Shown here piece by piece: positions 35,806-64,000 of a stretch of DNA of 64,000 bases. The position numbers and the translations under genes were made by a program. Every line of letters starts with the position of its first letter. The stretch's first letter is position 1. The stretch is from a virus. The stretch spans positions 134,627 to 198,626 of the IMG/VR virus record IMGVR_UViG_3300042562_002450; one strand, written 5' to 3'. Below the pieces are notes generated by a model. That model worked only from the letters and a program-made list of their open reading frames with translations. It had not been told where the DNA came from and ran no database searches.

Positions 35806-37809
35806 CTAGATAATTGATCTAGATATTCTTCTGGAGTTTCTAGCTGTTTTAATTGAATCTCTTGCATTCCTTCTTATGTCACGTCTGTCATCATTATTGA
35901 AAGCTTCTTTCGAATAAATACGACCTGAGTTTGTTCCATAAATCGGATTATTTAAAAATGATACTCCGTTCCTTACACTATTACTAGTAATATCTGAACG
36001 AGTTTCTGGTCTTTGTATTGATCTTCCACCAATAGATGGCTCTGCTATATTCCCAGAACCTTGCCCAAAAGATCCGCTAACAGCAACACTACTTGAGAAA
36101 TGCTGTTTAGTGTACTCACCTAGTTCAATTTCTAAGCCAACTACTGCTAACATAAAAGCATCAAGATCATGATCTCCAGCTGGGCCAGCTTGATATATTG
36201 CCATCCCAGAAGCATTAACTCTTGCTATGCTGTAACCATGCAATTGCTTAAGTAGGACTTCATCTTCAGATGAAAAGTTAATCATTCCTCTTTCAAAAAA
36301 CCGAACATTACTTTCAATGATAAATGGTTTCATATGCATTTTCTGAGGTAATCCAGTTACTGGATCAAATACATCTAACTTAGAACTTGAGTTTATACCT
36401 TTAGTGTTTATGAAATTCATATCTAAATGAGCGAATTGATCTTTTCTCATTTGGGCATCTTGACCGATCTTACGAAGGAGCTCAATCTGAGTTGCACCAT
36501 AACCAGTGTCGACATAGATATATGTACAGTTCCAAATACGATTCATTTCTAATGCTTTCTGAACTGCAGCAGTCTGAACCCATCCTGCTTTTTGAACAGT
36601 GGCAGATGCCACACATCTAATACGCCCATCACCTGGACTATATTCTACTATTCGGATTTTTGTCCCATTTTCCGCATCATTCCAGTCGATACCCATTGAA
36701 TATATATAGTCACGATTATAAACCATATCTTCATACTTATAAGAAACCATAGCAGTTTCCAACAAGCCAAACTGAAAAACTGATGTAGCTGCTTCTCCAA
36801 ACTCTGCAAGAATTTCATGTTGCCATCCAATTTCTGTACGATAGGATGCTCGAAGTTCTGCTTCCATCTTTGGACCCCAAGAAGGATTAGACAAAGAAGA
36901 ATAAAAGAACTCTTTAAAATCCATACGTTGAGTACAAAAATCATAAAAGTATTCTCTACGACCTGATGGCGTAGAAGCTGCAATCATCTCTACATCATTA
37001 TGCTCCATTAAGAGAGCGATAACAGTATCGATATCTTCCTGCTTTAAATAGTCCATCTCATCCATCATAATAAAATCAGCAGGCTGACCTCGGACAGAAG
37101 ATGCACCAGATGAACCAGCAGAAAATCCAGAAATAATCATTCCAGACTTTAATGTAACTTTGTAATAAGGTGTAGCAACAAATGATTCAACCTCAGAGGC
37201 AAGCTCTGGATTCATATCAAACATACGCTTCATACGAGCAAAGAAATCTTTTACCTGTGATAAATAAGGAGCAAGGAATAGAATAGATCCAAACCCTTTA
37301 ACCCATTCATTACGGTGAGCATCCCATCTTTGTTCTTTTGGGGAATTATTAAATAAACGAAATAATGCCCAGATCAACATAACTTCAGACTTACCTAATC
37401 GACGACCACAACGTAAAACTTTGCGCTTACTGGAACATCTTAAGATATTAGATTGATACTCAATCTGCTTATTCGATTTACGGGGTCTCCAACCAAAGTA
37501 CTTTTCAGCCCAAGTAACCGCATCGTAAACTGCAGTTAAATCATATAATTCGCCGTCAGAAATCTTCTCTCCAGACTCTTTCTCAATTCTTTCTAATAGA
37601 TAATCTTGTCGAGGGATATATTTATTCTCATCAGGGATACCTTTGCAATCAATAATGAAGTCGCCCTTTTTATATAAAGGCAAACCAGTTTCATTATTAA
37701 CGGGGCCATCTATAATGGCTACCCTACTATTAACACAATCAAGACAAAATTGGGTAAGCTTCTTACCTTCTTTTGCCAGCGTGACTGAGGGATGCGGGAC
37801 AAAACTCAT
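35806..37809 (-). CDS. terL: Terminase large subunit
   Basis: Walker A GRRLGKS, Walker B MMDEMD, STPSG motif, RNase H-like GIDWN / YVDTGYG / DHDLDA. Confidence 0.95.
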   Translation of the reverse strand: MSFVPHPSVTLAKEGKKLTQFCLDCVNSRVAIIDGPVNNETGLPLYKKGDFIIDCKGIPDENKYIPRQDYLLERIEKESGEKISDGELYDLTAVYDAVTWAEKYFGWRPRKSNKQIEYQSNILRCSSKRKVLRCGRRLGKSEVMLIWALFRLFNNSPKEQRWDAHRNEWVKGFGSILFLAPYLSQVKDFFARMKRMFDMNPELASEVESFVATPYYKVTLKSGMIISGFSAGSSGASSVRGQPADFIMMDEMDYLKQEDIDTVIALLMEHNDVEMIAASTPSGRREYFYDFCTQRMDFKEFFYSSLSNPSWGPKMEAELRASYRTEIGWQHEILAEFGEAATSVFQFGLLETAMVSYKYEDMVYNRDYIYSMGIDWNDAENGTKIRIVEYSPGDGRIRCVASATVQKAGWVQTAAVQKALEMNRIWNCTYIYVDTGYGATQIELLRKIGQDAQMRKDQFAHLDMNFINTKGINSSSKLDVFDPVTGLPQKMHMKPFIIESNVRFFERGMINFSSEDEVLLKQLHGYSIARVNASGMAIYQAGPAGDHDLDAFMLAVVGLEIELGEYTKQHFSSSVAVSGSFGQGSGNIAEPSIGGRSIQRPETRSDITSNSVRNGVSFLNNPIYGTNSGRIYSKEAFNNDDRRDIRRNARDSIKTARNSRRISRSII

Positions 37810-40597: not shown

Positions 40598-40611
40598 TTA
40601 TAAAGTATATC
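40598..40611 (-). promoter_or_regulatory. Candidate late promoter GATATACTTTATAA (includes extended -10 TGATATACT)
   Basis: Identical to 35698-35711, with the same 18-nt distance to ATG. Confidence 0.55.
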
Positions 40612-40639
40612 ATAAATAGTATTTGACAGAAGATCAAGT

Positions 40640-41140
40640 ATTTACCTTTTTTAGGGGTATTTAAAATATGTTTATTTTAGTCAAAAACGGTTGCGAATCG
40701 ACTGTTTCTGTTCGAAAGCTGAAAGAAACTGAAGAGAACTGAAAAGAAAAATGAAATTACGAATCAAAAAAATGAAAAAATGAAAAAAAATAGAGTTCTC
40801 CCTAAAGGGAGAATTAAGATATTTTATAAGATATTGGAATAATTAAGGTCTGGGAAAAAAGACCTAGGTAAGCGCTAATTGCAACATGCGACTGCAGTTA
40901 CCCTAAATGGGTAAAGATTTGGCTGAGTATGCTTGCGACTGCATGACTCTCCGCGCCGATGACACCCCCCCCGTAAATGAAAAATAAAAAAACAAAAATT
41001 GGGAATTCGCAATTTGCAAAATAAAAAATAAAAAAGCGTTAAGGGGGTGGGGGTCAAAAAAAACTAAAAAAAATAAAATGGGAATTCGAAAAAGCGAAAA
41101 TGTTTTCGTGTAGTCCTAGATTGATTGATCAAATAGATCT
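40640..41140. other. Divergent non-coding control region; candidate genome terminus or packaging site
   Basis: Transcription direction switches here; phased A-tracts, TGCGACTGCA direct repeat, C8/G5TG5 inverted arms, GGGAATTCG twice. Confidence 0.45.
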
Positions 41141-41193
41141 CACCTCTAACAATTTCGTTCGAGGTACCGGGGTCTATATATAAAGGAATTTTT

Positions 41194-41391
41194 ATGAAAG
41201 AAATTACTGTTGAAGAATGCATTGCTTTAGTGTCTTCAGTCCTTGGTGTAGAGAAAGCAAATAGCTATAGCAACTACATTGCAGAATTGCAAGATGTTAC
41301 TGTTGCTGTTTCGTCGTATGGTCTTATCTGTGTTCTATATACAGATGATGGTGGTAATTCCTCTGACTTTGAGATTCATCTCATTGCTTAG
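41194..41391 (+). CDS. Early hypothetical protein
   Basis: AAAGGAATTTTT-ATG RBS; 65 aa. Confidence 0.75.
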   Translation: MKEITVEECIALVSSVLGVEKANSYSNYIAELQDVTVAVSSYGLICVLYTDDGGNSSDFEIHLIA

Positions 41392-41459
41392 GGTCTTGCT
41401 TGCTTGTTTCTTACCTATGTGCAATTTCGCATATAGGTACACATATCAAAGGAATTTTT

Positions 41460-41642
41460 ATGAAACAGTTTAGATTAGATTCAATTGACCTTTCTCAACC
41501 TGCTAGTCTTCCATCATTTCCTAAAACAAAAAGGAAATACAGACTTCAAGCTTTTGATAAGAAAGCTAACAAAGAAGTGGAGGAGCACTCTGATCCCTTC
41601 CGTCCTAGAGATACAAGCGTACCTTTGAAGAAGGCTGCTTAG
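41460..41642 (+). CDS. Early hypothetical protein (ends KKAA)
   Basis: Same AAAGGAATTTTT-ATG RBS; start reset from the track's 41400. Confidence 0.75.
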   Translation: MKQFRLDSIDLSQPASLPSFPKTKRKYRLQAFDKKANKEVEEHSDPFRPRDTSVPLKKAA

Positions 41643-41709
41643 TATACATACACCTATATACATATCGTATATAGGTACACATCCACTACATATAACAATG
41701 AGGTATCTA

Positions 41710-41913
41710 ATGACTACTATCAATTACTCTATCACTGTATCTGATGCGCTATCTACACCGCATGCCATTGCCTCTATACATAAGACTAATGGGCACTACC
41801 TACACCTAGTACTAGACAATGGTAAGGACATTACTATTGATGAGTACGATATACCAACACATGACCTTATCCCTACTGAAGATATGTACATAGTACGTAT
41901 CGCTAAGGGGTAA
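41710..41913 (+). CDS. Early hypothetical protein, paralog of 44478..44696
   Basis: GAGG RBS; MTTINYSITVSD versus MTTLNYSITVLD. Confidence 0.75.
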   Translation: MTTINYSITVSDALSTPHAIASIHKTNGHYLHLVLDNGKDITIDEYDIPTHDLIPTEDMYIVRIAKG

Positions 41914-41970
41914 TACATACAAACATAAATACATACAATTTCGTATGTATATATAACCTTAGGAGGTTAT

Positions 41971-42147
41971 ATGTCTTATTCTCTAACTGATGCTATGGCA
42001 TCACTGGAAAACACTTACGAGTACGCATTGCGTGCTCAAGAGTGTGACTACAACGATGAGCATGAAGCTTATCACAAAGCTGCTATTAAGGCGGCGCTAG
42101 AGGCTATCCATGCTCAAGCAGCACTGGAGGCTTCTGATAAGGAGTAA
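41971..42147 (+). CDS. Early hypothetical protein (58 aa, not in ORF track)
   Basis: AGGAGG RBS; MSYSLTDAMASLENTYEYALRAQECDYNDEHEAYHKAAIKAALEAIHAQAALEASDKE. Confidence 0.75.
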   Translation: MSYSLTDAMASLENTYEYALRAQECDYNDEHEAYHKAAIKAALEAIHAQAALEASDKE

Positions 42148-42150
42148 TCC

Positions 42151-42214
42151 TTATTACCTTAATGCAGCCTATGCCGGTCACAAGCCCGGATGAAAAATGC
42201 AGAGTGAGGGATAA
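42151..42214 (+). ncRNA. Twister ribozyme, type P1
   Basis: CCU-UAA-UGCA-GCC-UAU-GCCGG-UCACAAGC-CCGG-AUGAAAAA-UGCA-GAGUG-AGG: P1 CCU/AGG, P2 UGCA/UGCA, P4 CCGG/CCGG, T1 pseudoknot CAC/GUG; predicted cleavage U42160/A42161. Confidence 0.9.
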
Positions 42215-42306
42215 AACATAAGCATGGATTTAAGCTTATGCCCAAAATATAAAACCTCTACATGTATAGTTGGACTATATGTGTATACAAGGAAAAGGAG
42301 CACACC

Positions 42307-42492
42307 ATGAAACGTGATGCAACTGTTCATTCCCAAGCTCGCAAGGCTTGGCGTGAACACAAGCGGTTACGTCGTGATAAAGCTAAGTCCTATTCAAGTG
42401 AACGCTTGATAGGCTGGCGAAATCGCGAATGGGTTAAGGCTCAGCGTAAGTACAATGAAGTACTTGCCTGGTCTGACAACCAAGCCGCGTAG
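42307..42492 (+). CDS. Early basic hypothetical protein (ends QAA)
   Basis: AAGGAG RBS before ATG 42307. Confidence 0.75.
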   Translation: MKRDATVHSQARKAWREHKRLRRDKAKSYSSERLIGWRNREWVKAQRKYNEVLAWSDNQAA

Positions 42493-42660
42493 TACCTAAC
42501 GGTACTGCAACATATCCTGAAACGATAGGGATATGAAATATACCTCCCACTGTAATGGTGGGATGTATATAAAACTTATATAGGTATTACTTATATTGGT
42601 TCTATATACATTGTGTATAAACTACATATTTTATGTAGTTATTTTAGATAAAGGAATTTT

Positions 42661-42912
42661 GTGAAAATAACAATTAACATGTTTTGTGATCGTCTTCTTG
42701 GAGACAACAAAATGGAAGTGCTAATGGTAGCAATTCATGCACGTAAGCTTGATCCCTCTATTAGATTAGAGACAGTTCAGGCTATATATGATGTCAAGTT
42801 TACACTTGATTCATGCATCATGTTTTCTACTGGTAGTGAAGAAGATAAGCAGATTATCGCTAGATTAACTAGTGAGTATGAGTCTCTACTATCACAAGGC
42901 ATGATTCTTTAG
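42661..42912 (+). CDS. Early hypothetical protein
   Basis: AAAGGAATTTT-GTG RBS. Confidence 0.75.
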   Translation: MKITINMFCDRLLGDNKMEVLMVAIHARKLDPSIRLETVQAIYDVKFTLDSCIMFSTGSEEDKQIIARLTSEYESLLSQGMIL

Positions 42913-42925
42913 TAGTAAACGATTA

Positions 42926-42989
42926 AGGCCGAAACGCAGTTACTAAGTAACGTAAGTCGTATATGTGTAATGCACATACTGATGAGGCT
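42926..42989 (+). ncRNA. Hammerhead ribozyme, type II (copy 1)
   Basis: GCC-GAAAC-stem III-GUA(42961)-UAUGUG/CACAUA stem I-CUGAUGA-GGC. Confidence 0.88.
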
Positions 42990-43021
42990 GTATCTAATAA
43001 TCAAATATCCTAGGAGGATAT

Positions 43022-43183
43022 ATGAATGACATAGATAAATGTTTTGAATTGATGGAGGCTTACATTCGAGCAGATGAACGTAATCATAATGGCGAATATT
43101 ATGAGGTATCTCTTAGTGATAAGGAAATCGCTATTGCTGCTGATCTTGATCTCGCTAACTGGATCGAAGACCTAGTTGCTTAA
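43022..43183 (+). CDS. Early acidic hypothetical protein (53 aa, not in ORF track)
   Basis: AGGAGG RBS; MNDIDKCFELMEAYIRADERNHNGEYYEVSLSDKEIAIAADLDLANWIEDLVA. Confidence 0.75.
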   Translation: MNDIDKCFELMEAYIRADERNHNGEYYEVSLSDKEIAIAADLDLANWIEDLVA

Positions 43184-43184
43184 A

Positions 43185-43247
43185 AGCCGAAACGTCTTAT
43201 CTACTGATAGATAAGAGTCTATGTGTAATGCACATACTGATGAGGCT
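43185..43247 (+). ncRNA. Hammerhead ribozyme, type II (copy 2)
   Basis: AGCC-GAAAC-G-UCUUAUCUA/UAGAUAAGA stem III-GUC(43219)-UAUGUG/CACAUA-CUGAUGA-GGCU. Confidence 0.92.
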
Positions 43248-43262
43248 AATCTTATTAGGTAA

Positions 43263-43484
43263 TTGGAGGTTCTTTTGAAAAAGCACACTTCTCCTTCTGA
43301 TCTCTATGAGATCAAAATGTCTGCTCTGCACGGGGCAGCCATGGACTTGATTGAGTTGGAGTTAAATCAGCCCATTTACTGGGTTGATTCTGCTCTTGCT
43401 TCCCTTGCTCTTGACCTTGCCACTGAGGAGTTAGCTAATGCTGAACTTCTTTTGGATATCTGGTTGAGTACAACAGAAAACTAA
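43263..43484 (+). CDS. Early acidic hypothetical protein
   Basis: ORF filling the space between hammerheads 2 and 3; start may be TTG 43275 after GGAGG. Confidence 0.65.
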   Translation: MEVLLKKHTSPSDLYEIKMSALHGAAMDLIELELNQPIYWVDSALASLALDLATEELANAELLLDIWLSTTEN

Positions 43485-43485
43485 A

Positions 43486-43551
43486 AGCCGAAACGCTTTC
43501 ACTTAACAGTGATGTAAGCCGTCTATGTGTATTACACATACTGATGAGGCT
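43486..43551 (+). ncRNA. Hammerhead ribozyme, type II (copy 3)
   Basis: AGCC-GAAAC-bulged stem III (UCACU/AGUGA)-GUC(43523)-UAUGUG/CACAUA-CUGAUGA-GGCU. Confidence 0.92.
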
Positions 43552-43608
43552 GTTCTTAATTAATCCCTAAACATTCACTTATACATATGAACTAACTAAG
43601 GAGTCTTT

Positions 43609-43899
43609 ATGTTAGTAAACATTCGTCGTATATCGAATCATGCAACTGAACGTCTTGTAGAGACATATAGAGTTGCCCCTAAGATTCAAAAGATTATTGC
43701 TTTAGTTGTTTCACAAGCAGCTAAAAATGTAATCGAGTATGGCCGTGATAATGCTGTATTCGTTATTAACCCTAATGAAGGGGCTTATGTGGTTAAAGGT
43801 GACACTGTTGTTACTTTTATTCATAAGTCTCGTATTGGTGAGTTCGGTAACTGCCAACGTGCTTATGATCATTATAAATCTACTGGTAAAGCAGCTTAA
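43609..43899 (+). CDS. Early protein with possible BECR-type RNase fold (DUF4258-like); ends KAA
   Basis: ISNHATERL near the N-terminus and YVVKGDTVVTFI near the C-terminus. Confidence 0.4.
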   Translation: MLVNIRRISNHATERLVETYRVAPKIQKIIALVVSQAAKNVIEYGRDNAVFVINPNEGAYVVKGDTVVTFIHKSRIGEFGNCQRAYDHYKSTGKAA

Positions 43900-43914
43900 A
43901 CAAAAGGAGTACCT

Positions 43915-44238
43915 ATGAATACAAAGACACTTTTTCGTATGCACAGAAGAAATCAATTAGAGAAAGGTATCTGGAAAGATGCTAATCCCTTACTGGAAAT
44001 GGAACTATCTTCCCAATATGGTGTTGGTGGAGCAGAAGGCTTAGAGGAAGATGACTATTTCGCTATGCCTTCTATGGATTCTTTCCTATCAAGTGATTTG
44101 GAAATTCTTAAGAAATACAATTATGTAATTTCTAAAATTGAAGTTGTTGCTTGGGGTGAAGTATTGAATCACGACGGAAGTGTTATTGAGTGTGTATTTA
44201 AAATTTCGGATGTCGTAAAGGCTGAAGAATTATATTAA
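43915..44238 (+). CDS. Early hypothetical protein
   Basis: AAGGAG RBS. Confidence 0.75.
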   Translation: MNTKTLFRMHRRNQLEKGIWKDANPLLEMELSSQYGVGGAEGLEEDDYFAMPSMDSFLSSDLEILKKYNYVISKIEVVAWGEVLNHDGSVIECVFKISDVVKAEELY

Positions 44239-44254
44239 TCAACAAGGAGTTACT

Positions 44255-44473
44255 ATGAAAGCGATTCTATCTAAAGAGATTAAAGATCTAGGTGTCACTG
44301 AGTCTGATGTTAAGCATATGATGAAAGCATGTAATGTTGTTCGTCATACTGACTATGAACCTAGTCTTGGTGATCTTAGGGATCTATTGGCTAATGCTTA
44401 TGAAGAAGAAAAGAAACGTAAACGTATTGTTCTGTCTTGGGCTGACTTATTAACTAGAATTAACAAAGGGTAA
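44255..44473 (+). CDS. Early hypothetical protein
   Basis: AAGGAG RBS. Confidence 0.75.
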   Translation: MKAILSKEIKDLGVTESDVKHMMKACNVVRHTDYEPSLGDLRDLLANAYEEEKKRKRIVLSWADLLTRINKG

Positions 44474-44477
44474 TCAA

Positions 44478-44696
44478 ATGACAACATTAAACTACAGCAT
44501 CACTGTCCTCGATTCTTGTCATCATCAAGTAAAAATCGTAGCAGTTAAAAGAAAGAAAGGTTGTGAGACTGAATACACATTAGAGAATGGATTATTTCTA
44601 TGTGTATCTGATTCATACATAACCAGTGGTGAAGAATTAATCCCAGTATCTGTTGGTAATAATGAACTGTATCTACATGTATCTAAGGTTGCTTAG
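44478..44696 (+). CDS. Early hypothetical protein, paralog of 41710..41913
   Basis: Shared N-terminus. Confidence 0.75.
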   Translation: MTTLNYSITVLDSCHHQVKIVAVKRKKGCETEYTLENGLFLCVSDSYITSGEELIPVSVGNNELYLHVSKVA

Positions 44697-44752
44697 TATC
44701 TCACTATAGAGCTTAACAATATCGTTAGGTTCTACAAATTAAGGAGTATCCA

Positions 44753-44962
44753 ATGGCCTATTTCTCTAATGATTTATCTGTTCGTAAACTTCAGTATCAA
44801 GAGTTACTTATCAAAGAAGGAGACTATACCTTTAATGAAGTAAAGGATATGTCCCTCAGAGATTTGCGCGCTGCTGTTGATGAGGTTCTATGTGTATCTA
44901 TCACAGAGCTAGTTGTTACTGCTGCTGGTGGTGTCTCTAGACGTACTAGAAAGATTGCTTAA
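44753..44962 (+). CDS. Early hypothetical protein
   Basis: AAGGAG RBS. Confidence 0.75.
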   Translation: MAYFSNDLSVRKLQYQELLIKEGDYTFNEVKDMSLRDLRAAVDEVLCVSITELVVTAAGGVSRRTRKIA

Positions 44963-45018
44963 TTAATCACTAAAGGGCCTAGTAATATAGCTAGGCTCTA
45001 TAAAATAAAGGAGTCTCT

Positions 45019-45114
45019 ATGAGAATACTAACTATGAAAATTACCAAATTTAAAGATCAGACTTGGTATGACTTTTATTACAGAGGCAAGCACTTGCTTT
45101 GGATATCTCTATAG
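45019..45114 (+). CDS. Early small protein (31 aa, not in ORF track)
   Basis: AAGGAG RBS after a stem-loop. Confidence 0.5.
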   Translation: MRILTMKITKFKDQTWYDFYYRGKHLLWISL

Positions 45115-45161
45115 ACTAACCATACTTGAGGCTAAATGTTTGAAACAACAAAGGAGTATCT

Positions 45162-45338
45162 ATGAAAGCATTACTTGGTATCTTACTTATGACTTATTTC
45201 TTTGTACTAATGGCTGAAGCAGCTCTTACCGTTGATAAGTTTGGAACACTTGCCGATGTTGCCTCTAAGAATCAAAGAGCTATTAATAAATTACATGGTA
45301 GAAGTCCTGCTGTTGCTTATAACAAGGGAGATCTATGA
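45162..45338 (+). CDS. Small protein with signal peptide/TM helix (58 aa, not in ORF track)
   Basis: AAGGAG RBS; MKALLGILLMTYFFVLMAEAA... Confidence 0.6.
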   Translation: MKALLGILLMTYFFVLMAEAALTVDKFGTLADVASKNQRAINKLHGRSPAVAYNKGDL

Positions 45339-45416
45339 GATTAGTTGTATTGTTGATTGTTGTTCGTATCGCCTTTTCTGTTGTCACTTCACTATAAACA
45401 ATTCAAAGGAGTATCT

Positions 45417-47237
45417 ATGGAAAATTCATCTATCACTAACAATGGAGTTTTTGTGGCTAAATGTAACGAGTGTTTCGTGTCTATCACTACTGGTGAATTC
45501 TGTCACTTGTGTTCACCTTACATGTTAACAAATAAAGGAGCCTCTGTGTCTAAAAACCTTTCTGACAAAGAATTCTTATTCACTGTTGTACTTGAAGCTG
45601 CTACTGAGATTATGAAGTCTAAACGTAAACCCGCTTCTACTAAGCGCTCTAAGTCTTTATTCATCCCTGACCTTAAGCAGTGTTCTTCTCGTATAGGTTA
45701 TGGAATGTCTAATTCTGGTATGGTTGAAGATTGCAATCTATTCGATACTGAAAGTCATGGAGACATTGATAGTAATGGAAGTGAATATGAAGAAGTTGAA
45801 TCTTTATCTTTTGAAGATAGAACTGGTACTAGTATTCACGAATCATCTTACTTAGAGTCTCAGTCTAAAGAGTATTCTTTTGAAAGTAGCCTAGCTCACT
45901 CTAAAGCTGTTCTTCAATCAAGAGATGTCGACACTAAGGATCTATCTGATGAAGTAATTGAAGTTCTAGGTAAGCAAGTAGCTGATGTGAATGAAGCTCC
46001 TAACGCTCGCCTATCTGGTGAATCTAAGTATATTACAACTGTTACTGTTCAGCGCAAGTCTAAGCAGTCAGGCTTTTGGTACAATGTTAAGGATATTGCT
46101 CCATTCATTATTAACAATGAAGCTATCTTTTCTATTGATGACTCTGGTGAAATTGAAGGTCAAAAGTTTGTATCTGATTATTCTTACGACAAGGTAAGTA
46201 AGAAGATGGTTAAGTCTCAGAATTCTGCATTATTGGTTGCAATGAGAACAGTAGGTCTTGATACATTTCACATTGTTAGCTATGTTGACAATCATACAAA
46301 TGATTTCAATACAGAGATCGTTGAACAAAGGTTTGTAGTTAAGTCTAAAGGTTTAAAGTCAGGGAATAAGTTTGAAAATATGAGACTACCTGTTGGTCTT
46401 GCTCCATTCAACTACACTGTTAACAAGAAAGGAAAAGTCGTAGAACAAACTACTTTCTTTGAGAATGACACTCTTGATCTTGAGAATGGTATTGTTATAT
46501 CTGCAATAATGGATGAGGAGTTCGCTGCAGATGTGGATAATAGATTGCATCAACAAGGCATTCTTACTGGTCGTTCTAATGTTACCATAGCAATGATGTA
46601 TGATGACATGTTCAAGGCTGAGTTAGAGCAACGTAAAATGGAAGATCTGACCCTTAGCTATGTAGCAGCTAAAGCTAAGAAAGATGTATTCATTAAACCT
46701 GCTCTTACTGCAGAGTATAAGAGAAAAGCAGTTAAGAAGAATCAAGATCTTCTTTCTTCTACTGAAGGTCAGCTTATATCTAAGTTCATTGAGAATTCAT
46801 ACATCCCTGACATGGAAGTCAAAGCTGATATCCTTGAGTTTCTTAATCAGAACAAAGCAGATCTTTTACTAATCAAGAAGATTGCTATTGCTCATCGTGC
46901 AATTCGTGGTAGAGGTTTCGAAGCTTCTGTTTATAGAGTATTAGAGAAGATGATAGCAGCAAGTAATAGAAAGACAGTGGCTAATCAAGTTGACACTCAT
47001 GTACTTCTTAATATCAGATCATTAAACAACAAGTCTCTTCTTGTCTCTTCACTTGATGATTCTGAAGTTATTGAGATCTACGATGTTGCGGTTAAGTTCA
47101 GAGCTATTGATGATTCTTGTAACATTGAGCATACTGTTGCTATTCAGATGAAAGATCGCTACATGAAGATTAAAGGTATTAAATCTCCTGTAGTCAAGCC
47201 ATCTAATTCCGTCGTTCGTAATGTTAAAGTTTCTTAG
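45417..47237 (+). CDS. Large early hypothetical protein with N-terminal CxxC...CxxC zinc ribbon
   Basis: AAGGAGTATCT-ATG at 45417; KCNEC...FCHLC; acidic Ser-rich linker. Confidence 0.8.
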   Translation: MENSSITNNGVFVAKCNECFVSITTGEFCHLCSPYMLTNKGASVSKNLSDKEFLFTVVLEAATEIMKSKRKPASTKRSKSLFIPDLKQCSSRIGYGMSNSGMVEDCNLFDTESHGDIDSNGSEYEEVESLSFEDRTGTSIHESSYLESQSKEYSFESSLAHSKAVLQSRDVDTKDLSDEVIEVLGKQVADVNEAPNARLSGESKYITTVTVQRKSKQSGFWYNVKDIAPFIINNEAIFSIDDSGEIEGQKFVSDYSYDKVSKKMVKSQNSALLVAMRTVGLDTFHIVSYVDNHTNDFNTEIVEQRFVVKSKGLKSGNKFENMRLPVGLAPFNYTVNKKGKVVEQTTFFENDTLDLENGIVISAIMDEEFAADVDNRLHQQGILTGRSNVTIAMMYDDMFKAELEQRKMEDLTLSYVAAKAKKDVFIKPALTAEYKRKAVKKNQDLLSSTEGQLISKFIENSYIPDMEVKADILEFLNQNKADLLLIKKIAIAHRAIRGRGFEASVYRVLEKMIAASNRKTVANQVDTHVLLNIRSLNNKSLLVSSLDDSEVIEIYDVAVKFRAIDDSCNIEHTVAIQMKDRYMKIKGIKSPVVKPSNSVVRNVKVS

Positions 47238-47246
47238 TTAATCAGA

Positions 47247-47585
47247 TTAGAGCTCAGCAATAATGCTGGGCTCCATAAACAAAAGGTATTGTCACTCATG
47301 AAAAATTTAATCCGTATTACTTGTTTAGAAATTTACTTCCTTCTCTTAAACGAAAAGCACATGTGGCTTGAAAAAAGAGGAACATACATCGATGATCAAT
47401 ATATGGTTGGTGATGCCATTGCTGATCAGCTATATGGTACTGGACATTATTGGTGGGCTAAGGCTCTTCTTGAATGGCAATACAGCAGAGCAACTGGGAA
47501 AGTAATAACTAAATAATTATAAAAACTTAGAGCTCAGCAATAATGCTGGGCTCCATAAACAAAAGGTATTGTCACTCATGAAAAA
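47247..47585 (+). repeat. 59-bp exact direct repeat (47247-47305 and 47527-47585)
   Basis: TTAGAGCTCAGCAATAATGCTGGGCTCCATAAACAAAAGGTATTGTCACTCATGAAAAA occurs twice, 280 bp apart. Confidence 0.95.
47298..47516 (+). CDS. Early hypothetical protein
   Basis: ATG lies inside repeat copy 1. Confidence 0.65.
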   Translation: MKNLIRITCLEIYFLLLNEKHMWLEKRGTYIDDQYMVGDAIADQLYGTGHYWWAKALLEWQYSRATGKVITK

Positions 47586-47856
47586 CATTACTATATGGAA
47601 TTCAAATAAAGTTGAAGTAACAGAAGAGGTGTTTGCTCGCCTTAACTGTGATTTTGTTAATCATAAAGTTCTTACTTATGCTGGCTATGCATATGTGTGT
47701 TTCATTAAAGATAAGCAGACACATGAGAATGCCTCGAAGGTGGATGTTGGATATTATGTTTCAGGTACTTATAAATGCATGTATGGTCCATTTGAGAAAG
47801 CAGAAGAGGCATGGCAAATGGTTGAAGAATTAAAGGAATACGATAGAGAGATGTAA
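47578..47856 (+). CDS. Early hypothetical protein
   Basis: ATG lies inside repeat copy 2. Confidence 0.65.
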   Translation: MKNITIWNSNKVEVTEEVFARLNCDFVNHKVLTYAGYAYVCFIKDKQTHENASKVDVGYYVSGTYKCMYGPFEKAEEAWQMVEELKEYDREM

Positions 47857-47906
47857 GCAGAGTATGAAAGAGCTAAACAATAGAACTAACCAACTAAGGA
47901 GTAACT

Positions 47907-48215
47907 ATGAATATGTCAGAAAAAGATTTATGCATTATTTTACCACTACTATGCAATGAGATTGCTAACAACTTAAATGGCTTATTCTACAATGACGACT
48001 TTGATGATATGCAAAAGAGAGAGGATTTCGAAAACAAGCTAAGTGTAGCATTTAAGATAATGGATAATTCCAACCCTACTGAAGAGTTTAAATCTTGGCT
48101 TAATGGTGTATCTGAAAGGTATCAGACAGAAAAGAACGAACACGATAGAGAGGTTCGATATTTTGAAAGAATAGCAAAATTAGAAAAAGAACTTAATAAA
48201 AAAACAAATGACTAA
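47907..48215 (+). CDS. Early hypothetical protein
   Basis: AAGGAG RBS. Confidence 0.75.
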   Translation: MNMSEKDLCIILPLLCNEIANNLNGLFYNDDFDDMQKREDFENKLSVAFKIMDNSNPTEEFKSWLNGVSERYQTEKNEHDREVRYFERIAKLEKELNKKTND

Positions 48216-48259
48216 GAGCTCAGCAATATCGTTGGGCTCTAATTACAAAAGGAGTATCT

Positions 48260-48505
48260 ATGAATTTATCTATCGCTGACGCTATGGTATTTAGAGATCT
48301 ATTAGAGAATAAGATTGAGCAACTGGATGAGATACTATCTACCATTAAGGAGAGGAGTGAGTTAATTGGAGAACCTCTGGATGAGAATGATGAGTATCAG
48401 CATGACTGTCACCGTCTTAGTTATTACAAAAAAATGCTAAGTCGGATTCAGTCTTATATATTAGTGGAGATGTCACCATCTGAAGATCCAACAACAAAGG
48501 AGTAA
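48260..48505 (+). CDS. Early hypothetical protein
   Basis: AAGGAG RBS. Confidence 0.75.
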   Translation: MNLSIADAMVFRDLLENKIEQLDEILSTIKERSELIGEPLDENDEYQHDCHRLSYYKKMLSRIQSYILVEMSPSEDPTTKE

Positions 48506-48507
48506 TT

Positions 48508-48738
48508 ATGAAAGACAAAAGAATTAAAAGACAGAAAAGAAGATTAGCGAGAGAACACCTACAGCCAATCGTATTAACGAATTATCAAAAGAAGGTAGCA
48601 TCTATTAAGGTCTTAATGGATAGAGTGGATAGATTCGTAAAAGATTCTGGTGTATCGCAAAAGCTTGAAGCTGCTGGTATAGAGCGATCTGATTTATTAA
48701 AAGCTTTTTTCAAGAGAAACAACAAGAAGAAGGAGTAA
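48508..48738 (+). CDS. Early basic hypothetical protein
   Basis: AAGGAG RBS. Confidence 0.7.
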   Translation: MKDKRIKRQKRRLAREHLQPIVLTNYQKKVASIKVLMDRVDRFVKDSGVSQKLEAAGIERSDLLKAFFKRNNKKKE

Positions 48739-48749
48739 TTATGAGAGAT

Positions 48750-49070
48750 ATACTCCGTGACCTCCGTTTCGTCGTGCCTCCTCAACTGCGGCATTCACCT
48801 TGCTTCCGCAAGTCTCATGTGTCACTCCGTTTGTTTACACAAACTTCGTGCCATCCCTCGTTACGATTCGCATTCGCTCATCTCCCTCTTTGCTTCGCAT
48901 TGGGGGAAGCTGCAGCATTCGCTTTGCTTACGCAAACCTCATGCCTCCGCTGGGATCTAATACGGGTAACTCACTGCACTCACTAATGTTCGTTCCATTC
49001 GTCCTTGGGATTGGATCCTTGGGACTAGGGAAGCTCACTTCGTTCGCACATAGCTCGGCATAGCCTCGCA
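48750..49070. repeat. GC-richer island of short mini-hairpin motifs
   Basis: Minus strand carries GCGAAGC, GCGTAAGC, GCGGAAGC, GCGAATG x3 and ACGGAG x3. Confidence 0.6.
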
Positions 49071-49119
49071 TATCAATGGTATCTTTTTTGGATACTAAAA
49101 CAGAAACAAGGGGATTAAG

Positions 49120-49668
49120 ATGAAAACAAAGATTAAGATTAAAGACTTGAATCTTGAGTTAATGAGTTTGTATTTCAATGATACATGGGGAACTAAGGAT
49201 ACGTTCATTGCTGCAGTGAATGTAAATTACAATAAGGAGACAGGAGAGGAGATCGGGGTAGAGGAAGTGTTGACTCCGAGATTTGATACTGTATCGGTAC
49301 TTAGTCAATGGGTAGAAGATAACGTTGCTGATCTTGGCGATCAGTTATGTAATGCTGCTTTGTTCATAGAAGATGAGCAAACGTATGAAGTCTTTACCAG
49401 TAGTGAAGTTACTTATGCGTTTTCTGATTTCATTACAGTAGAGCAAAAGAAATTAAACTATGAGTTCTATTGCAAGAAGCTAGCTACAGCTAACAACTGG
49501 GCTAAGCTTAAGATTGTGAGAGAATCTGTCCTTGCTGGCCAGAAAGGAAAAAACGGGATGTTCTTCTTTAATCCAGGAGAGTCAAAAGAGTTCTGGAGAA
49601 AATACAATGAGAAGAAAAACATTTTAAATCAGGCAATCAAAACAAAGAATGGGAAACGTTCGGCATAG
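49120..49668 (+). CDS. Hypothetical protein
   Basis: 182-aa ORF with RBS. Confidence 0.75.
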   Translation: MKTKIKIKDLNLELMSLYFNDTWGTKDTFIAAVNVNYNKETGEEIGVEEVLTPRFDTVSVLSQWVEDNVADLGDQLCNAALFIEDEQTYEVFTSSEVTYAFSDFITVEQKKLNYEFYCKKLATANNWAKLKIVRESVLAGQKGKNGMFFFNPGESKEFWRKYNEKKNILNQAIKTKNGKRSA

Positions 49669-49719
49669 CCTCACATAGATAAATTTGTAACTTATGTAAC
49701 TTAAACAAATGGAGATCAT

Positions 49720-49929
49720 ATGAAAGACTTAGTAACACTATTCGCAACTAACCATATCGGTAATGTTGAAAGAGAAAGAGAAAGAGAATACAGAGTATCG
49801 TCTAGATTACAAATGGATGATCATTACGCTCCCAAGTCTGGTAGCTTCGTTAATGAGAAAGTTAAACCATTAACTGACTGTGAAGTAATCGAATTAAACA
49901 TTCAGCGCGCTTTTAACAAAGCTGCTTAA
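49720..49929 (+). CDS. Hypothetical protein (ends KAA)
   Basis: GGAG RBS. Confidence 0.7.
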   Translation: MKDLVTLFATNHIGNVEREREREYRVSSRLQMDDHYAPKSGSFVNEKVKPLTDCEVIELNIQRAFNKAA

Positions 49930-49959
49930 AACATAAAAAATAAAACTAAGGATAACACA

Positions 49960-50271
49960 ATGAGTAAATTATTCAATAGAGCTAAGGTAATGAAAGGATT
50001 TGATTACAGTAATAAATTCTGCACGTTGCTTATCGCACGTAGCCAAGTGATTCAAAAGGTTGCTGAGATAGGATTAAAGGTAGGAAATAATAATCAGTTG
50101 AAAGAAAGCTTTTGTGACTCATTAGAAGCAATTTGTTTGGTAATTGAAGATAGAGCTATTGGTTTATACAATATGTATTCTGACGAATACCAAGGTGATG
50201 TAGAGGATTTAATGAATAAGTATAATGCTTTTGAAACTTTAAAATCTGAAATAATTAAAAAAGAATACTAG
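49960..50271 (+). CDS. Hypothetical protein
   Basis: AAGGA RBS. Confidence 0.7.
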   Translation: MSKLFNRAKVMKGFDYSNKFCTLLIARSQVIQKVAEIGLKVGNNNQLKESFCDSLEAICLVIEDRAIGLYNMYSDEYQGDVEDLMNKYNAFETLKSEIIKKEY

Positions 50272-50312
50272 GAGTAGTGACCCTAGTTAGTCGTAGATAC
50301 TTCCTTTGTTTG

Positions 50313-50350
50313 ACCAGTAGATAGTGAGCAATGGGCTACTACTGGTTTTT
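50313..50350 (+). terminator. Probable Rho-independent terminator
   Basis: ACCAGTAG...CTACTGGT stem followed by TTTT. Confidence 0.55.
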
Positions 50351-50371
50351 ACTTAAAACCTTGGAGATAAA

Positions 50372-50653
50372 ATGAATGTAATATTCTTTATTATAATGAT
50401 CCCTTTGTTAGCACTCCGCCTCGCCTTCGCTATCATATTAGCAACAATGAAAACAATAGAAGTAATTGTTCAAATGTCTTGTTTCACGGTTAGTATCCTA
50501 ATCGCACCTTTTGTTTGGTTATTTGAACAAAAGATAGATCGGAAGCTAATCCCAGTACTACAATCTGAAGAAGCTCGCCAAGGCTCGCACCCTCGGCAAA
50601 GCCTCGGTAACCATTCGGCAAAGCCTCATGATACCCATTTTCGAGTCTCATAA
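50372..50653 (+). CDS. Membrane protein (hydrophobic N-half); C-terminus encoded by hairpin repeats
   Basis: GGAG RBS; two hydrophobic stretches. Confidence 0.55.
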   Translation: MNVIFFIIMIPLLALRLAFAIILATMKTIEVIVQMSCFTVSILIAPFVWLFEQKIDRKLIPVLQSEEARQGSHPRQSLGNHSAKPHDTHFRVS

Positions 50654-50687
50654 CTCACAATACACAAAAACAATCCGGGAGGATTAT

Positions 50688-51287
50688 ATGTCATCATCAA
50701 ATGCTCGTGATCTTGAACTTAAAAACCTAGCTGACCAAGCTAAAACTGATTTTGTTATTGTTCAACAACATCCTGAGAAACTAGAAGAGATCCTTGATAG
50801 AACTGTTAAAGCTAAAGAAAACTTTGCAAGTGACTACAAAGAAGCAAAAGAAAAAGGATTATCTCAAACTCGCAAAGATTCCAATAAGACAATTGACGAT
50901 CTGCTTCGAGAACTACAAACGCTTCGTGGACCTGAATTCCCAGCTGGAAGTCCACTAAGTCTTGAAGCTGCTAGCCGAGTTAGTGAAGTAAAGTCCATCA
51001 TCAATAAGATGACAATGGATCCTCAAAGTGAAGAAGAAGCTCGTAAAGCATGGACTGGCCTATACAAATACGGACGAGGCATTGCTACAAATCATGCGGT
51101 GTATCTACAGTGTAAACAAATGTATTATGATAAATTGGCTTCTAATTACCTGAGATATGCTCAAGGTTCATCTGATAGGTCTGAAGGAAGAGATAGAGCT
51201 ATCCTGAACAAAGTTACTAATGGAGCTGTTAACTACAAACCAGAATTTGTTCAAGCTATCTGTAACCTGCTAGAGCCAAAAGCCTAG
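50688..51287 (+). CDS. Hypothetical helical protein
   Basis: GGAGG RBS before ATG 50688. Confidence 0.75.
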   Translation: MSSSNARDLELKNLADQAKTDFVIVQQHPEKLEEILDRTVKAKENFASDYKEAKEKGLSQTRKDSNKTIDDLLRELQTLRGPEFPAGSPLSLEAASRVSEVKSIINKMTMDPQSEEEARKAWTGLYKYGRGIATNHAVYLQCKQMYYDKLASNYLRYAQGSSDRSEGRDRAILNKVTNGAVNYKPEFVQAICNLLEPKA

Positions 51288-51348
51288 TTGAATATTCAAA
51301 GAGCCTGACTTAAACAGTTGGGCTCTTATTCAAAACAAGGAGCAACTT

Positions 51349-52128
51349 ATGTCACGACAACTAGGTATTATTGCACACCATACTGCAGAAGAAAACAAAG
51401 GTCCTACCTTCGCAGGATATGACCTAAGAGTAAAACAAAAACCAAGTAACTATCATCATGTAAATATCAATGACTTTGAATTAATATATAACGGCTTCGG
51501 TTGTGAAAGAGATAACCCAGTTCCAGCCAATAAACTATTCGAAAATCTAAATCGAAGTATCTGTAAAGTCCATGTCGACCAGCTTAAGACTGAAGAAGCT
51601 TTAAATAAAGCAAGTCAAGAAGCTGAAGAGACTAAGAAAGAAGTTAATGGGAAAATCCTTAAGAATGTTTATCAAAAAGGCGATGGGTATCGTTTTGACC
51701 TACAGTGTAATGAAACTGAAGAAATCAAAAAAGCTGTTCAGTCTATGGTTAATGCATGGTCGGGCGCAATGTCTAAACGTATTGAGATGGAATTCGCTGT
51801 CATCTGCCAACTACGTAAAGGTACTCTTGATATCGCTGAAGAGAATGGTCAGGAATTCCTAGTTGAATTCCACGAAGACGGTCCAGTAAAGATAAATGAA
51901 AACAGATGTATACCAATAGAAAAGATTAAAGAATCTATATACTTCATGATCCAGCCTTTTAGATACTCAGAAGAATTATTCTTGAAGTATATAAACTGTG
52001 AACATACTACGGATGGGTTCACTGCGTTATATGAAAAAGGTAAATTGTATTTCGAAAAAAGAAATGGTACGCCGTTCACAGAAATTGAAATAGCTATCGC
52101 TAAGGATCTAATCAAAATGAAAATGTGA
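51349..52128 (+). CDS. Hypothetical protein
   Basis: AAGGAG RBS; 259 aa. Confidence 0.8.
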   Translation: MSRQLGIIAHHTAEENKGPTFAGYDLRVKQKPSNYHHVNINDFELIYNGFGCERDNPVPANKLFENLNRSICKVHVDQLKTEEALNKASQEAEETKKEVNGKILKNVYQKGDGYRFDLQCNETEEIKKAVQSMVNAWSGAMSKRIEMEFAVICQLRKGTLDIAEENGQEFLVEFHEDGPVKINENRCIPIEKIKESIYFMIQPFRYSEELFLKYINCEHTTDGFTALYEKGKLYFEKRNGTPFTEIEIAIAKDLIKMKM

Positions 52129-52135
52129 GGTCCAG

Positions 52136-52774
52136 ATGAGTAAGAGAAATCGTAATAGTAATCAAACCCAGTTGCCTAATGAGCAACAACAACTAGGAGT
52201 CTTTCCCATGCAACAATCCACACCAGCTATTGACACAAAAGCACAAGCAGCTCAAGCAGCAGCAAGTGAACCTAAGTCTACTTCAACAGCTCGAGTAGGC
52301 GGTGAATCTAACACTCCTTCAGATAAAAAGAAGGATGATAAAAAAGAGAGCCAATTCATTGACGTCATTACTTACATCCCACGTAAAGTATGGAATGATG
52401 GAATCATCCCAGTATGGAATCTAGGTAAAGGTATGACACTTAAAGCTTGGGATAGAACAAAAGCTACATTCGAAAATGAAAAAGCTTATGCTAGTTCTCA
52501 AGGTCCTTCAAAGTATCTGTTAGACAGAATTGCGACACTTGGACTTAAAGTGTTAAAACTCGCCGCGGTATTTACCTTGGCTACATTCTTAGCTAAGCTT
52601 GCAATGAGTTCATTCGGTATCGCTTTATTCTCACCAGCTGTCATGATCACTGTAGCAATCGTTGCCCTACTTTGTATGGTAATCCGTTCATACATGATCC
52701 AGAAAGAAACTTCTACAGAAGTATCTGCTAAGACACTTGGTAATCACATCGTTGAACAGATGTGCGCTGCATAA
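52136..52774 (+). CDS. Membrane protein with disordered N-terminus (ends CAA)
   Basis: Two C-terminal hydrophobic helices. Confidence 0.75.
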   Translation: MSKRNRNSNQTQLPNEQQQLGVFPMQQSTPAIDTKAQAAQAAASEPKSTSTARVGGESNTPSDKKKDDKKESQFIDVITYIPRKVWNDGIIPVWNLGKGMTLKAWDRTKATFENEKAYASSQGPSKYLLDRIATLGLKVLKLAAVFTLATFLAKLAMSSFGIALFSPAVMITVAIVALLCMVIRSYMIQKETSTEVSAKTLGNHIVEQMCAA

Positions 52775-52783
52775 TGATAATAC

Positions 52784-52814
52784 AAGCCCAGGGTAGAAAT
52801 ACCTTGGGCTTTTC
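52784..52814 (+). terminator. Rho-independent terminator
   Basis: AAGCCCAGGGTA-GAAA-TACCTTGGGCTT followed by a T-rich tract. Confidence 0.75.
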
Positions 52815-52863
52815 TTATTACTAAAAAACCGCAGATACATCTCTAATGGTTAAGGATAATCAT

Positions 52864-53094
52864 ATGGACTTCGATATACTAGCTACAAAATTCTGGAGAA
52901 TAGAACCTCTTAGTCTAAAAGAACTAGAGTTCCTATACAAAGAATTTAAAGAAGGAATGAAAGCAGAAGTAATACAAGATGGTGACCTGGAAGATATAAT
53001 AGCACATGCACAAGATGCACTAAGACTAGAACTAGCTATAGCCAAAAGAAAAAGACAAACCCCCGTAAAAATCAATACCCATAATCCTAAGTAG
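52864..53094 (+). CDS. Hypothetical protein
   Basis: AAGGA RBS before ATG 52864. Confidence 0.65.
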   Translation: MDFDILATKFWRIEPLSLKELEFLYKEFKEGMKAEVIQDGDLEDIIAHAQDALRLELAIAKRKRQTPVKINTHNPK

Positions 53095-53104
53095 TTAATA
53101 CTAT

Positions 53105-53480
53105 AAGGGAGCGAAGCGACCGTAATACCCAACCCGAGCGAAGCGAGGGTGGTAATCAACCCGAGCGAAGCGAGGGGTACTTAACAAAGGAATAAATAAT
53201 TTTTATTCAGACCGTTAGAGTGATCCGATAAGTTGTTGAAAAAACAAACTTTTGGATTTGGGTACCAGGTACAAATGGGTACAAATAGGTACGAATGGGT
53301 ACGAATGGGTATCAATGGGTATAACTGTTTATAGTAATGGGTATAAATGGTTACATTAAGGTTATTAATGGGGTTTATTGTGATTATATGATTACATTAC
53401 TTGTATATAGCCTTTGGCTATTATATTAGTTATATACCATTAAGAGTAAGTTGATAGGGTATTGTAAAGTTAGTGTTTAT
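53105..53480. other. Candidate replication origin
   Basis: GAGCGAAGCGA x3 (53105-53175), about 8 tandem 10-bp units (consensus GGGTAYRAAT, 53260-53360) and an AT-rich flank. Confidence 0.5.
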
Positions 53481-63839: not shown

Positions 63840-64000
63840 AAAAGGAATTTATATGTTTGAACAACTTTATAAGTTAAAAGCTTTAAGTGATTGTTTTTAC
63901 TTATTAAATAAAAGTGAAATTGGTGATTTGATTTATCTTAGAGAAAAGATTCAGCAAAATGTTTCTCTTTTAAATGATGATCTTAGTTTTTTAAATTTTA

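Follow-up and report, generated by a model that had tools for sequence, protein, structure and literature searches.

The window analysed here, a stretch of 64,000 nucleotides, forms the final 64 kb of a 198.6-kb contig from an uncultured lake phage (IMG/VR virus record IMGVR_UViG_3300042562_002450; contig 89% complete), and its early arm carries a family of short stem-loops at the junctions between consecutive genes. The - strand genes up to position 40637 are structural and packaging genes, with the terminase at 35806-37809, and from 41194 onward the early arm is a run of small genes on the + strand, preceded by strong Shine-Dalgarno (SD) sequences. The early-arm proteins tested against Pfam and PHROGs gave no informative match, and no tRNA genes are present. 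Against a GenBank phage set, the early region and the putative non-virion polymerase had no match and the terminase matched distant large myoviruses only, and in IMG/VR no close relative of the terminase or of a 606-aa early protein was found. The comparisons below use two sets of relatives, named by their contigs: L001-L006, which were fetched via the 606-aa early protein and have ~95% nucleotide identity, and L009-L020, which were fetched via a 292-aa protein that adjoins the divergent control region and have 88-76% protein identity.

The initial annotation had listed nine hairpins and a related one at 51299, and all ten were recovered, both in position and in loop sequence (Table 1). When the family was defined strictly (a stem of at least 8 pairs, with G.U allowed, and a loop AATWWH or ATATC), eight members were found on the + strand and none on the - strand, the expectation from 200 dinucleotide-preserving shuffles being 0.47 per strand. 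The rest of the 198.6-kb genome held no further strict-family member, and the family is restricted to the early arm, namely to its first 7-10 kb. The stems have 8-12 continuous pairs without bulges, the loops measure 5-7 nt and the whole elements 22-29 nt. RNA folding of the eight distinct sites (hairpins 2-7, 9 and 10) gave -8 to -17 kcal/mol and z-scores of -4 to -7, with no shuffle folding equally well, which demonstrates the structure. The window copies fall into two unrelated stem types, both with an A/U-rich hexaloop beginning AAU. The closing pair, described beforehand as mostly C-G, is so in most copies and is U.G in some. Hairpin 1 was not counted as a secure family member because its 3' arm belongs to a leader motif, described below, and its 5' arm is phage-specific. 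Two further hairpins, outside the family, lie in the 219-nt gap at 42493-42711; a similar one is present in L012, and one recurs in L001.

Table 1. Hairpins, ribozymes, expression signals and mapped joints of the early arm
Feature	Position	Strand	Description
Conserved early leader	41108-41185	+	precedes the first early gene; single copy in the genome
Hairpin 1	41142-41166	+	doubtful: 9 pairs, one U.C mismatch, loop AATTTC; z -1.2, 32/200 shuffles fold equally well
Hairpin 2	41412-41439	+	11 pairs, 1 G.U, loop AATTTC; SD 9 nt downstream; -15.5 kcal/mol, z -7.2
Hairpin 3	41652-41676	+	10 pairs, loop ATATC; z -5.2
Hairpin 4	41929-41950	+	8 pairs, loop AATTTC; z -4.0
Twister-P1-like ribozyme	42156-42210	+	52.3 bits, E 3e-9, below the Rfam gathering score
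Three hammerhead cores	42913-43608	+	read by eye; open stem II, type II layout
Hairpin 5	44707-44734	+	11 pairs, 2 G.U, loop AATATC; z -6.5 (- strand z -2.4)
Hairpin 6	44974-44999	+	10 pairs, 2 G.U, loop AATATA (relatives AATATC); z -4.4; precedes a 31-codon open reading frame
Hairpin 7	47250-47273	+	9-10 pairs, 1 G.U, loop AATAAT; z -5.1; after the 606-aa gene
Hairpin 8	47530-47553	+	exact duplicate of hairpin 7 plus leader (~60 nt), before a different gene
Possible decayed copy	47857-47906	+	by eye: 5' arm and loop like hairpin 5, matching 3' arm missing
Hairpin 9	48215-48240	+	10 pairs, 2 G.U, loop AATATC; z -6.3 (- strand z -1.7)
Hairpin 10	51299-51327	+	same stem family, different 5-7 nt loop; z -5.2
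Intrinsic terminator closing the early operon	52784-52811	+	hairpin and T-tract, from the terminator scan
Joint	41181->41448		18 shared letters, common leader
Joint	41913->42155		
Joint	45164->48216		
Joint	47546->48233		inside hairpins 8 and 9; 7 shared letters
Joint	47553->48248		

The composition of the stems indicated which strand folds. As the initial annotation had argued from the wobbles, pairing is of the RNA type: read on the coding strand, the non-Watson-Crick pairs comprise 22 G.U, a single A.C at a terminal position and a single U.C. Several of these wobbles are inherited copies, and about ten independent ones are estimated, which are still one-sided. A decaying DNA palindrome should yield G.T and A.C equally, and the one-sided wobbles therefore point to a fold of the coding strand. 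At four of the five sites tested the - strand folded with z-scores of only -1.7 to -3.5, where the + strand gave -4.4 to -6.5; at site 7, which has a single wobble, both strands folded about equally. For the analysis of covariation, 15 distinct copies, taken from the window and its relatives, were aligned without gaps; 93.9% of the cells in this alignment were paired, and 9 of the 11 stem pairs had undergone compensatory changes. None of 500 shuffles equalled the observed paired fraction or covariation score, two of 500 equalled the compensatory-pair count, and when the partner strand was slid as a control, pairing fell to 23-44%. The fold is a property of the coding strand, most simply of the mRNA.

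Every hairpin is located in the gap from a stop codon to the following SD, as had been proposed from their placement in front of early-gene ribosome binding sites. The hairpin-to-SD distance was 6-10 nt in all but one case, and the distance from the stop codon ranged from a one-base overlap, at the start of hairpin 9, to 20 nt; i.e., the spacing is fixed to the downstream SD and variable to the stop codon. A role of the arms in SD/anti-SD pairing was considered and rejected, since the two stem types have opposite polarity. As also claimed beforehand, a T-tract is absent behind every copy, and the terminator scan picked the element at 52784-52811 and no family hairpin. A terminator-like hairpin and T-tract with other stem letters was found in L003, L009, L013 and L016, several of which retain an AGAAAT loop. 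A second element of the hairpin-plus-T-tract type is located near 50300-50350. These data bear on the suggestion that the hairpins are U-tract-independent pause or attenuation signals, by which the phage polymerase would grade expression along the operon. The closeness of the hairpins to the preceding stop codons would suit such a role, as would L013, in which an unrelated hairpin followed by a T-tract stands after the large early gene. However, the same genome has canonical hairpin-plus-T-tract terminators where transcription should stop, and it is the downstream SD, not the stop codon, to which the spacing is fixed, so that we consider attenuation highly unlikely.

One of the two functions offered in the initial annotation was that of N4-like promoters, i.e., DNA hairpins that would be extruded and recognized by an injected virion RNA polymerase, with one start per early gene. 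The confinement of the family to the beginning of the early arm is what such promoters would predict, and sigma-70-like sites are indeed scarce there (20 in 40600-53400, versus 44.7 +/- 7.6 expected), none of these 20 coinciding with a hairpin. Nevertheless, the proposal failed on strand, geometry and conservation. Hairpins formed by the template strand would contain A.C mismatches, and they folded poorly at four of the five sites tested. The early promoters of N4 consist of a hairpin of 5-7 pairs with a 3-nt loop, and the 5-7 nt loops and 9-11 pair stems found here are unlike them. Furthermore, the loops drift fast (see below), and relatives of the same layout that lack the family (76-80% identity) still keep the single-copy leader motif. 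The only characterised phage with a comparable single-chain two-barrel polymerase pair is P23-45, in which the promoters of the virion and the non-virion polymerase are linear motifs, AT-rich and GC-rich (PMC10770324). Hence, a promoter function of the hairpins appears extremely improbable. A -10-like reading of the loops was also tried and discarded, because the matches were inconsistent.

The stop-to-SD slot is shared with ribozymes, in agreement with the earlier proposal that both occupy the same type of site. In the window, the slots at 42148-43608 contain a twister-like element and three hammerhead cores. The Rfam scan of the window returned nothing at gathering thresholds, and at E up to 1 it returned the twister-like match only, with no hammerhead match at 42913-43608 and nothing at the hairpins, in which no known catalytic core was therefore recognized. 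The exchange of one type of element for the other was observed in front of homologous genes: the 41710 gene, which is preceded here by hairpin 3, has a homologue in L018 (42% protein identity) with a hammerhead in front, and the 44753 gene, preceded here by hairpin 5, has a homologue in L016 (48% protein identity) that also follows a hammerhead. Both swaps demonstrate that hairpins and ribozymes are interchangeable at these junctions. Family members were also found, with different stem letters, in L009, L016, L018 and the close strains. In L009 and L018 a covarying member is located after a large gene, whose products of 764 and 647 aa, respectively, are 24-25% identical to the 606-aa protein, and in L012, L016 and L013 an unrelated hairpin follows the large early gene; a generic hairpin therefore suffices at that place. 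No family member was found in L012 and L013 (76-80%) or in the more distant L025 and L026, and L012 and L025 carry ribozyme-like elements despite having no family hairpin.

An additional intergenic motif recurs in the relatives, and consists of a small hairpin, then a TTAAAC-type or TAAAAC-type run, and then TG. It was found in L009 (before 6664-6927 and 4009-6303), L012 (before 8015-8224), L018 (before 8199-8429) and L025. We take its layout to resemble that of the pistol ribozyme, and it may represent a third ribozyme class.

The stems and loops were then compared for their rates of change between the window and its ~95% identical relatives. Divergence was 1-3% at stem positions, 2-4% at second codon positions, 9-11% at third codon positions, 6-7% at other intergenic positions (12-14% in the two shortest loci) and 10-19% at loop positions. 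Among these strains the stems thus change at the pace of second codon positions and the loops at an about neutral pace; the counts are few and the relatives are not independent, and therefore this evidence of stem selection is taken as an addition to the covariation result, not as a proof of its own. Where stem changes were checked, they preserve pairing (C-G to U.G and G.U to G-C), and the stem of hairpin 5 is identical in the ~95% relatives. The loop in the slot of hairpin 9, before the 48260 gene, has four readings in four strains, with AATAAT, AATACT and AGTATT in the close relatives. The loop of hairpin 10 differs in every relative, its stem being unchanged in L003 and retained with an altered sequence in L016 and L018. 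The conserved loop that gave the family its initial description is thus correct as a similarity among the window copies, but it does not extend to conservation between strains. The results support a constraint on the fold, with the loop only loosely constrained (A/U-rich, usually with an AAU start).

The turnover of the loops also bears on whether the hairpins are specific sites for an RNA-binding protein or for a structure-specific endonuclease, of phage or host origin. An early-gene translational repressor would be one candidate, and a Csy4-like or RNase III-like cutter, the strict protein-dependent equivalent of a ribozyme, would be another. That an AAU-starting A/U-rich hexaloop, mostly C-G closed, is carried by two unrelated stem types speaks for such a protein, a protein bound next to the SD could block the ribosome, and the slot is interchangeable with self-cleaving ribozymes. 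However, a loop read by a protein is difficult to reconcile with the divergence of 10-19% in ~95% strains, with the four readings at one slot, or with a hairpin 10 loop that is different in every relative. Furthermore, classical RNase III substrates have longer stems than the 9-11 pairs seen here, and searches of the contig with RNase III, RegB and Csy4 profiles gave no match (the RegB blank weighs little, as the control search matched nothing), which leaves a host enzyme or a novel protein as the possible partner. On balance we regard a specific protein site as unlikely. The other function offered in the initial annotation, RNA-level sites that would be the protein-dependent counterpart of the ribozymes, was therefore retained in part: the strand, the covariation, the slot and the hammerhead swaps agree with an RNA-level counterpart of ribozymes, and the near-neutral turnover of the loops weakens the loop-reading protein.

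Besides their position between genes, the hairpins mark places where related strains differ in gene content. Joints were mapped with related-strain contigs from four lake and estuary DNA runs, and joints of deletion or replacement were found in or beside hairpins and ribozymes (Table 1), which demonstrates that these junctions are recombination joints; those involving the family were located at or in hairpins 1/2, 8/9 and 9. Three genes between hairpins 7 and 9 are missing in L003, and in L001 and L004 a somewhat diverged gene (83% identity) follows the same hairpin-plus-leader. In L004, hairpin 4 is retained with its downstream gene and the upstream gene is different. The cassettes of this strain are also reordered with respect to window positions 41928-43247, so that the block of the 42307 gene stands before the block formed by hairpin 4, the 41971 gene and the twister, and the 3' part of the twister is present in both aligned pieces.

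Such joints would also be expected if the hairpins were selfish or recombinogenic palindromes (REP-, MITE- or attC-like) that act in the DNA and drive cassette exchange, with no role in RNA. The patchy distribution of the family in relatives and the duplication of one copy together with its leader agree with this view, as do the deletions, replacements and reorderings just described. Nevertheless, the hairpins have a single orientation, their non-Watson-Crick pairs are nearly all G.U on the coding strand, and their spacing to the SD is fixed. No match to PF01797 (Y1, the IS200/RAYT-type transposase) or PF00589 (tyrosine integrase) was found in the contig, and the joints occur at varied positions, including common leaders and ribozyme edges. 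Because of these varied positions and of the lack of a match to either enzyme, homology-driven exchange fits better than site-specific recombination, and we consider it improbable that the hairpins are purely DNA-level elements. An attC-like reading of the AAC/GTT ends was examined and rejected, since these ends sit at the top of the stem and not at its base.

Upstream of the family, the early arm opens with a leader motif at ~41158-41185 that includes the 3' arm of hairpin 1 and has one copy genome-wide. Every relative examined in which the leader is present keeps its core, 41158-41172, even where the neighbouring proteins are only 44-53% identical. The 5' arm of hairpin 1 is peculiar to this phage, and in relatives it is replaced while the 3' arm motif stays. 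The leader has only a weak consensus fold (-5.5 kcal/mol, with 2 compensatory pairs) and was therefore regarded as a signal in sequence, outside the hairpin family. It is a candidate for the start signal of one long early operon, and it might possibly be read by the injected polymerase. The leader is part of the 550-nt divergent control region (40640-41193), the likely place of the early start signal. Several motifs of this region are kept in relatives, namely a run of G and then a run of A near 41043, a GGGAATTCG-type motif that occurs twice (41000 and 41079), and a 19-nt motif at 41108.

Taken together, these results are best accommodated by a reading in which the hairpins are structure-dependent cistron-boundary elements within one polycistronic early mRNA, which double as recombination joints; we put the chances of this reading at about even. 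One long early message would start at the leader (41158-41185) and end at the U-tract terminator (52784-52811). The hairpins would act via their structure and not via a specific loop sequence, and a stable stem might stall exonucleases arriving from either side. An endonucleolytic cut near the hairpin, possibly by a host enzyme, would fall in the A/U-rich spacer and give an upstream cistron with a 3' hairpin and a downstream cistron with a 5' hairpin close to the ribosome. In addition, the stem may insulate the next translation start from the sequence upstream. The neighbouring hammerheads are predicted to do an equivalent job through self-cleavage: by reading of the type II layout, their cut would give an upstream product that ends in stem III and a downstream product that begins with stem I, and this is the arrangement that a nuclease cut beside a plain hairpin would give. 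Secondarily, the repeated hairpins could serve as joints at which early-gene cassettes are swapped, deleted or reordered between strains. The single transcript, the nuclease barrier, the insulator role and any cleavage are steps that we infer.

A more specific version, which we think has a rather small chance of being correct, is a two-part punctuation of the early message. According to it, some junctions would be cut by ribozymes and others would be plain hairpins cut or capped by a structure-specific nuclease of the phage or the host, both being exchangeable modules and cassette joints.

Several points weigh against the cistron-boundary reading. A profile of the 292-aa family, with which a host and hence its set of RNases was sought, was unmatched in 185,579 species genomes. 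No RNA run is among the public runs that hold this stretch, and thus the single transcript, the RNA ends and their stabilisation are what we infer from the DNA. Relatives at 76-80% identity lack the family, so that the basic early programme can evidently run without it. That two unrelated stem types carry similar loops hints at a reading of sequence that goes beyond pure structure. Finally, the selection signal in the stems comprises few substitutions in relatives that share ancestry, and it backs the covariation without being sufficient by itself.

Other sequence features of the early arm and its relatives were recorded. A TTGGCT motif recurs just past stop codons in the early arms of L016 and L018, either in hairpin loops or directly 5' of hairpins, and its 8-nt form ATTGGCTA has only four occurrences in the 198.6-kb genome, with a single one in the window, away from the hairpins. 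A G+C-rich non-coding stretch with repeated CGCTCCG / GAGCGAAGCGAG-type units is located at 53095-53251, within the otherwise A+T-rich early arm. Stretches of this type were found in long gaps (230-410 nt) of L009, L012, L013, L016 and L018, i.e., in every 76-88% relative examined, and might represent either a structured RNA or a series of binding sites. The G+C content is ~25-30% in the last 10 kb (54000-64000, including the second polymerase-like gene), versus 35-39% in the rest of the window.

Several known systems resemble this one in part. The PeSL elements (promoter-early stem-loops) of T4-type phages combine a sigma-70-type promoter with a terminator stem-loop, and homology-driven exchange has been proposed for them (PMC2839356, PMC4122927). 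As with the hairpins described here, they are short repeated intergenic stem-loops among small variable early genes, at which indels and replacements between close relatives break; in contrast, the hairpins coincide with no promoter-like site, are followed by no T-tract, and have RNA-type pairing on the coding strand. Phage genes flanked by ribozymes were already described in 2011 (Perreault et al. 2011, PMC3088659). The ribozymes that punctuate operons of phages and prophages occupy the same slot between consecutive small genes, just before the next start, and both they and the hairpins have been proposed to turn a long transcript into gene-length messages. The difference is that a plain 9-11 pair hairpin has no catalytic core, so that any cut needs a nuclease.

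In RNase III sites the double-stranded stem extends over about two turns of the helix and often contains an internal loop. Intercistronic hairpins of this kind in phage early mRNAs, namely R0.3-R1.3 of T7 and those of SP82 (for B. subtilis RNase III), are among the cases cited in PMC4838370. They share with the present family the repetition between the cistrons of an early polycistronic message and the hairpin-capped products, capping being only predicted here; the known sites are longer, whereas here there are 8-12 continuous pairs and cleavage is putative.

The ESAS/SAS of Cluster K mycobacteriophages have 17-bp consensus arms and are tied to a conserved 13-bp start-associated motif, and their function, which is not established, is thought to concern expression (PMC3203893). 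They are also inverted repeats with a short variable spacer, located directly before the translation start of a subset of genes and nearly all in one orientation, but the arms of ESAS are conserved in sequence, whereas here the arms covary and the fold alone is kept. The REP/BIME palindromes and the 5' stem-loop stabilisers of ompA, papA and aprE (reviewed in PMC3997798) are likewise stable stems without a U-tract, inside operons or at 5' ends, which shield RNA from nucleases, a shielding that is predicted for the hairpins. Unlike REPs, which are genome-wide, in both orientations and linked to RAYT, the hairpins are local and in one orientation, with no such transposase found in the contig. 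Integron cassettes offer a further comparison. Their attC sites measure 57-141 nt, fold from the bottom strand with extrahelical bases, and have a tyrosine integrase nearby. The elements described here are only 22-29 nt long, fold from the coding strand, have no bulges, and are found in a contig with no PF00589 match.

Hence, ribozyme-flanked genes, intercistronic hairpins, hairpins before translation starts and stem-loop cassette boundaries are all already known. The set described here, plain covarying hairpins that have neither promoter nor terminator and are interchangeable with ribozymes, is a clear and well-controlled variant of such systems and does not constitute a new kind. In large uncultured phages, little is known of how the densely packed, uncharacterised small genes of the early regions are expressed and exchanged, and the window offers a clean example in which structure-only hairpins and self-cleaving ribozymes share gene junctions and swap before homologous genes. 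The same junctions are the breakpoints for gain, loss and reordering of cassettes between co-occurring strains. The single, deeply conserved leader motif is a better candidate than the hairpins for the signal read by the injected polymerase. If the two-part punctuation were true, nature would have its own version of the insulators that synthetic biology builds from Csy4 hairpins and ribozymes, and the early cassettes shuffled at these junctions would probably be host-takeover or anti-defence genes. If the cistron-boundary role is true, such hairpins might serve as compact insulator parts, and in phage genomes for which no transcriptome is available they could help to set the limits of transcription and processing units.

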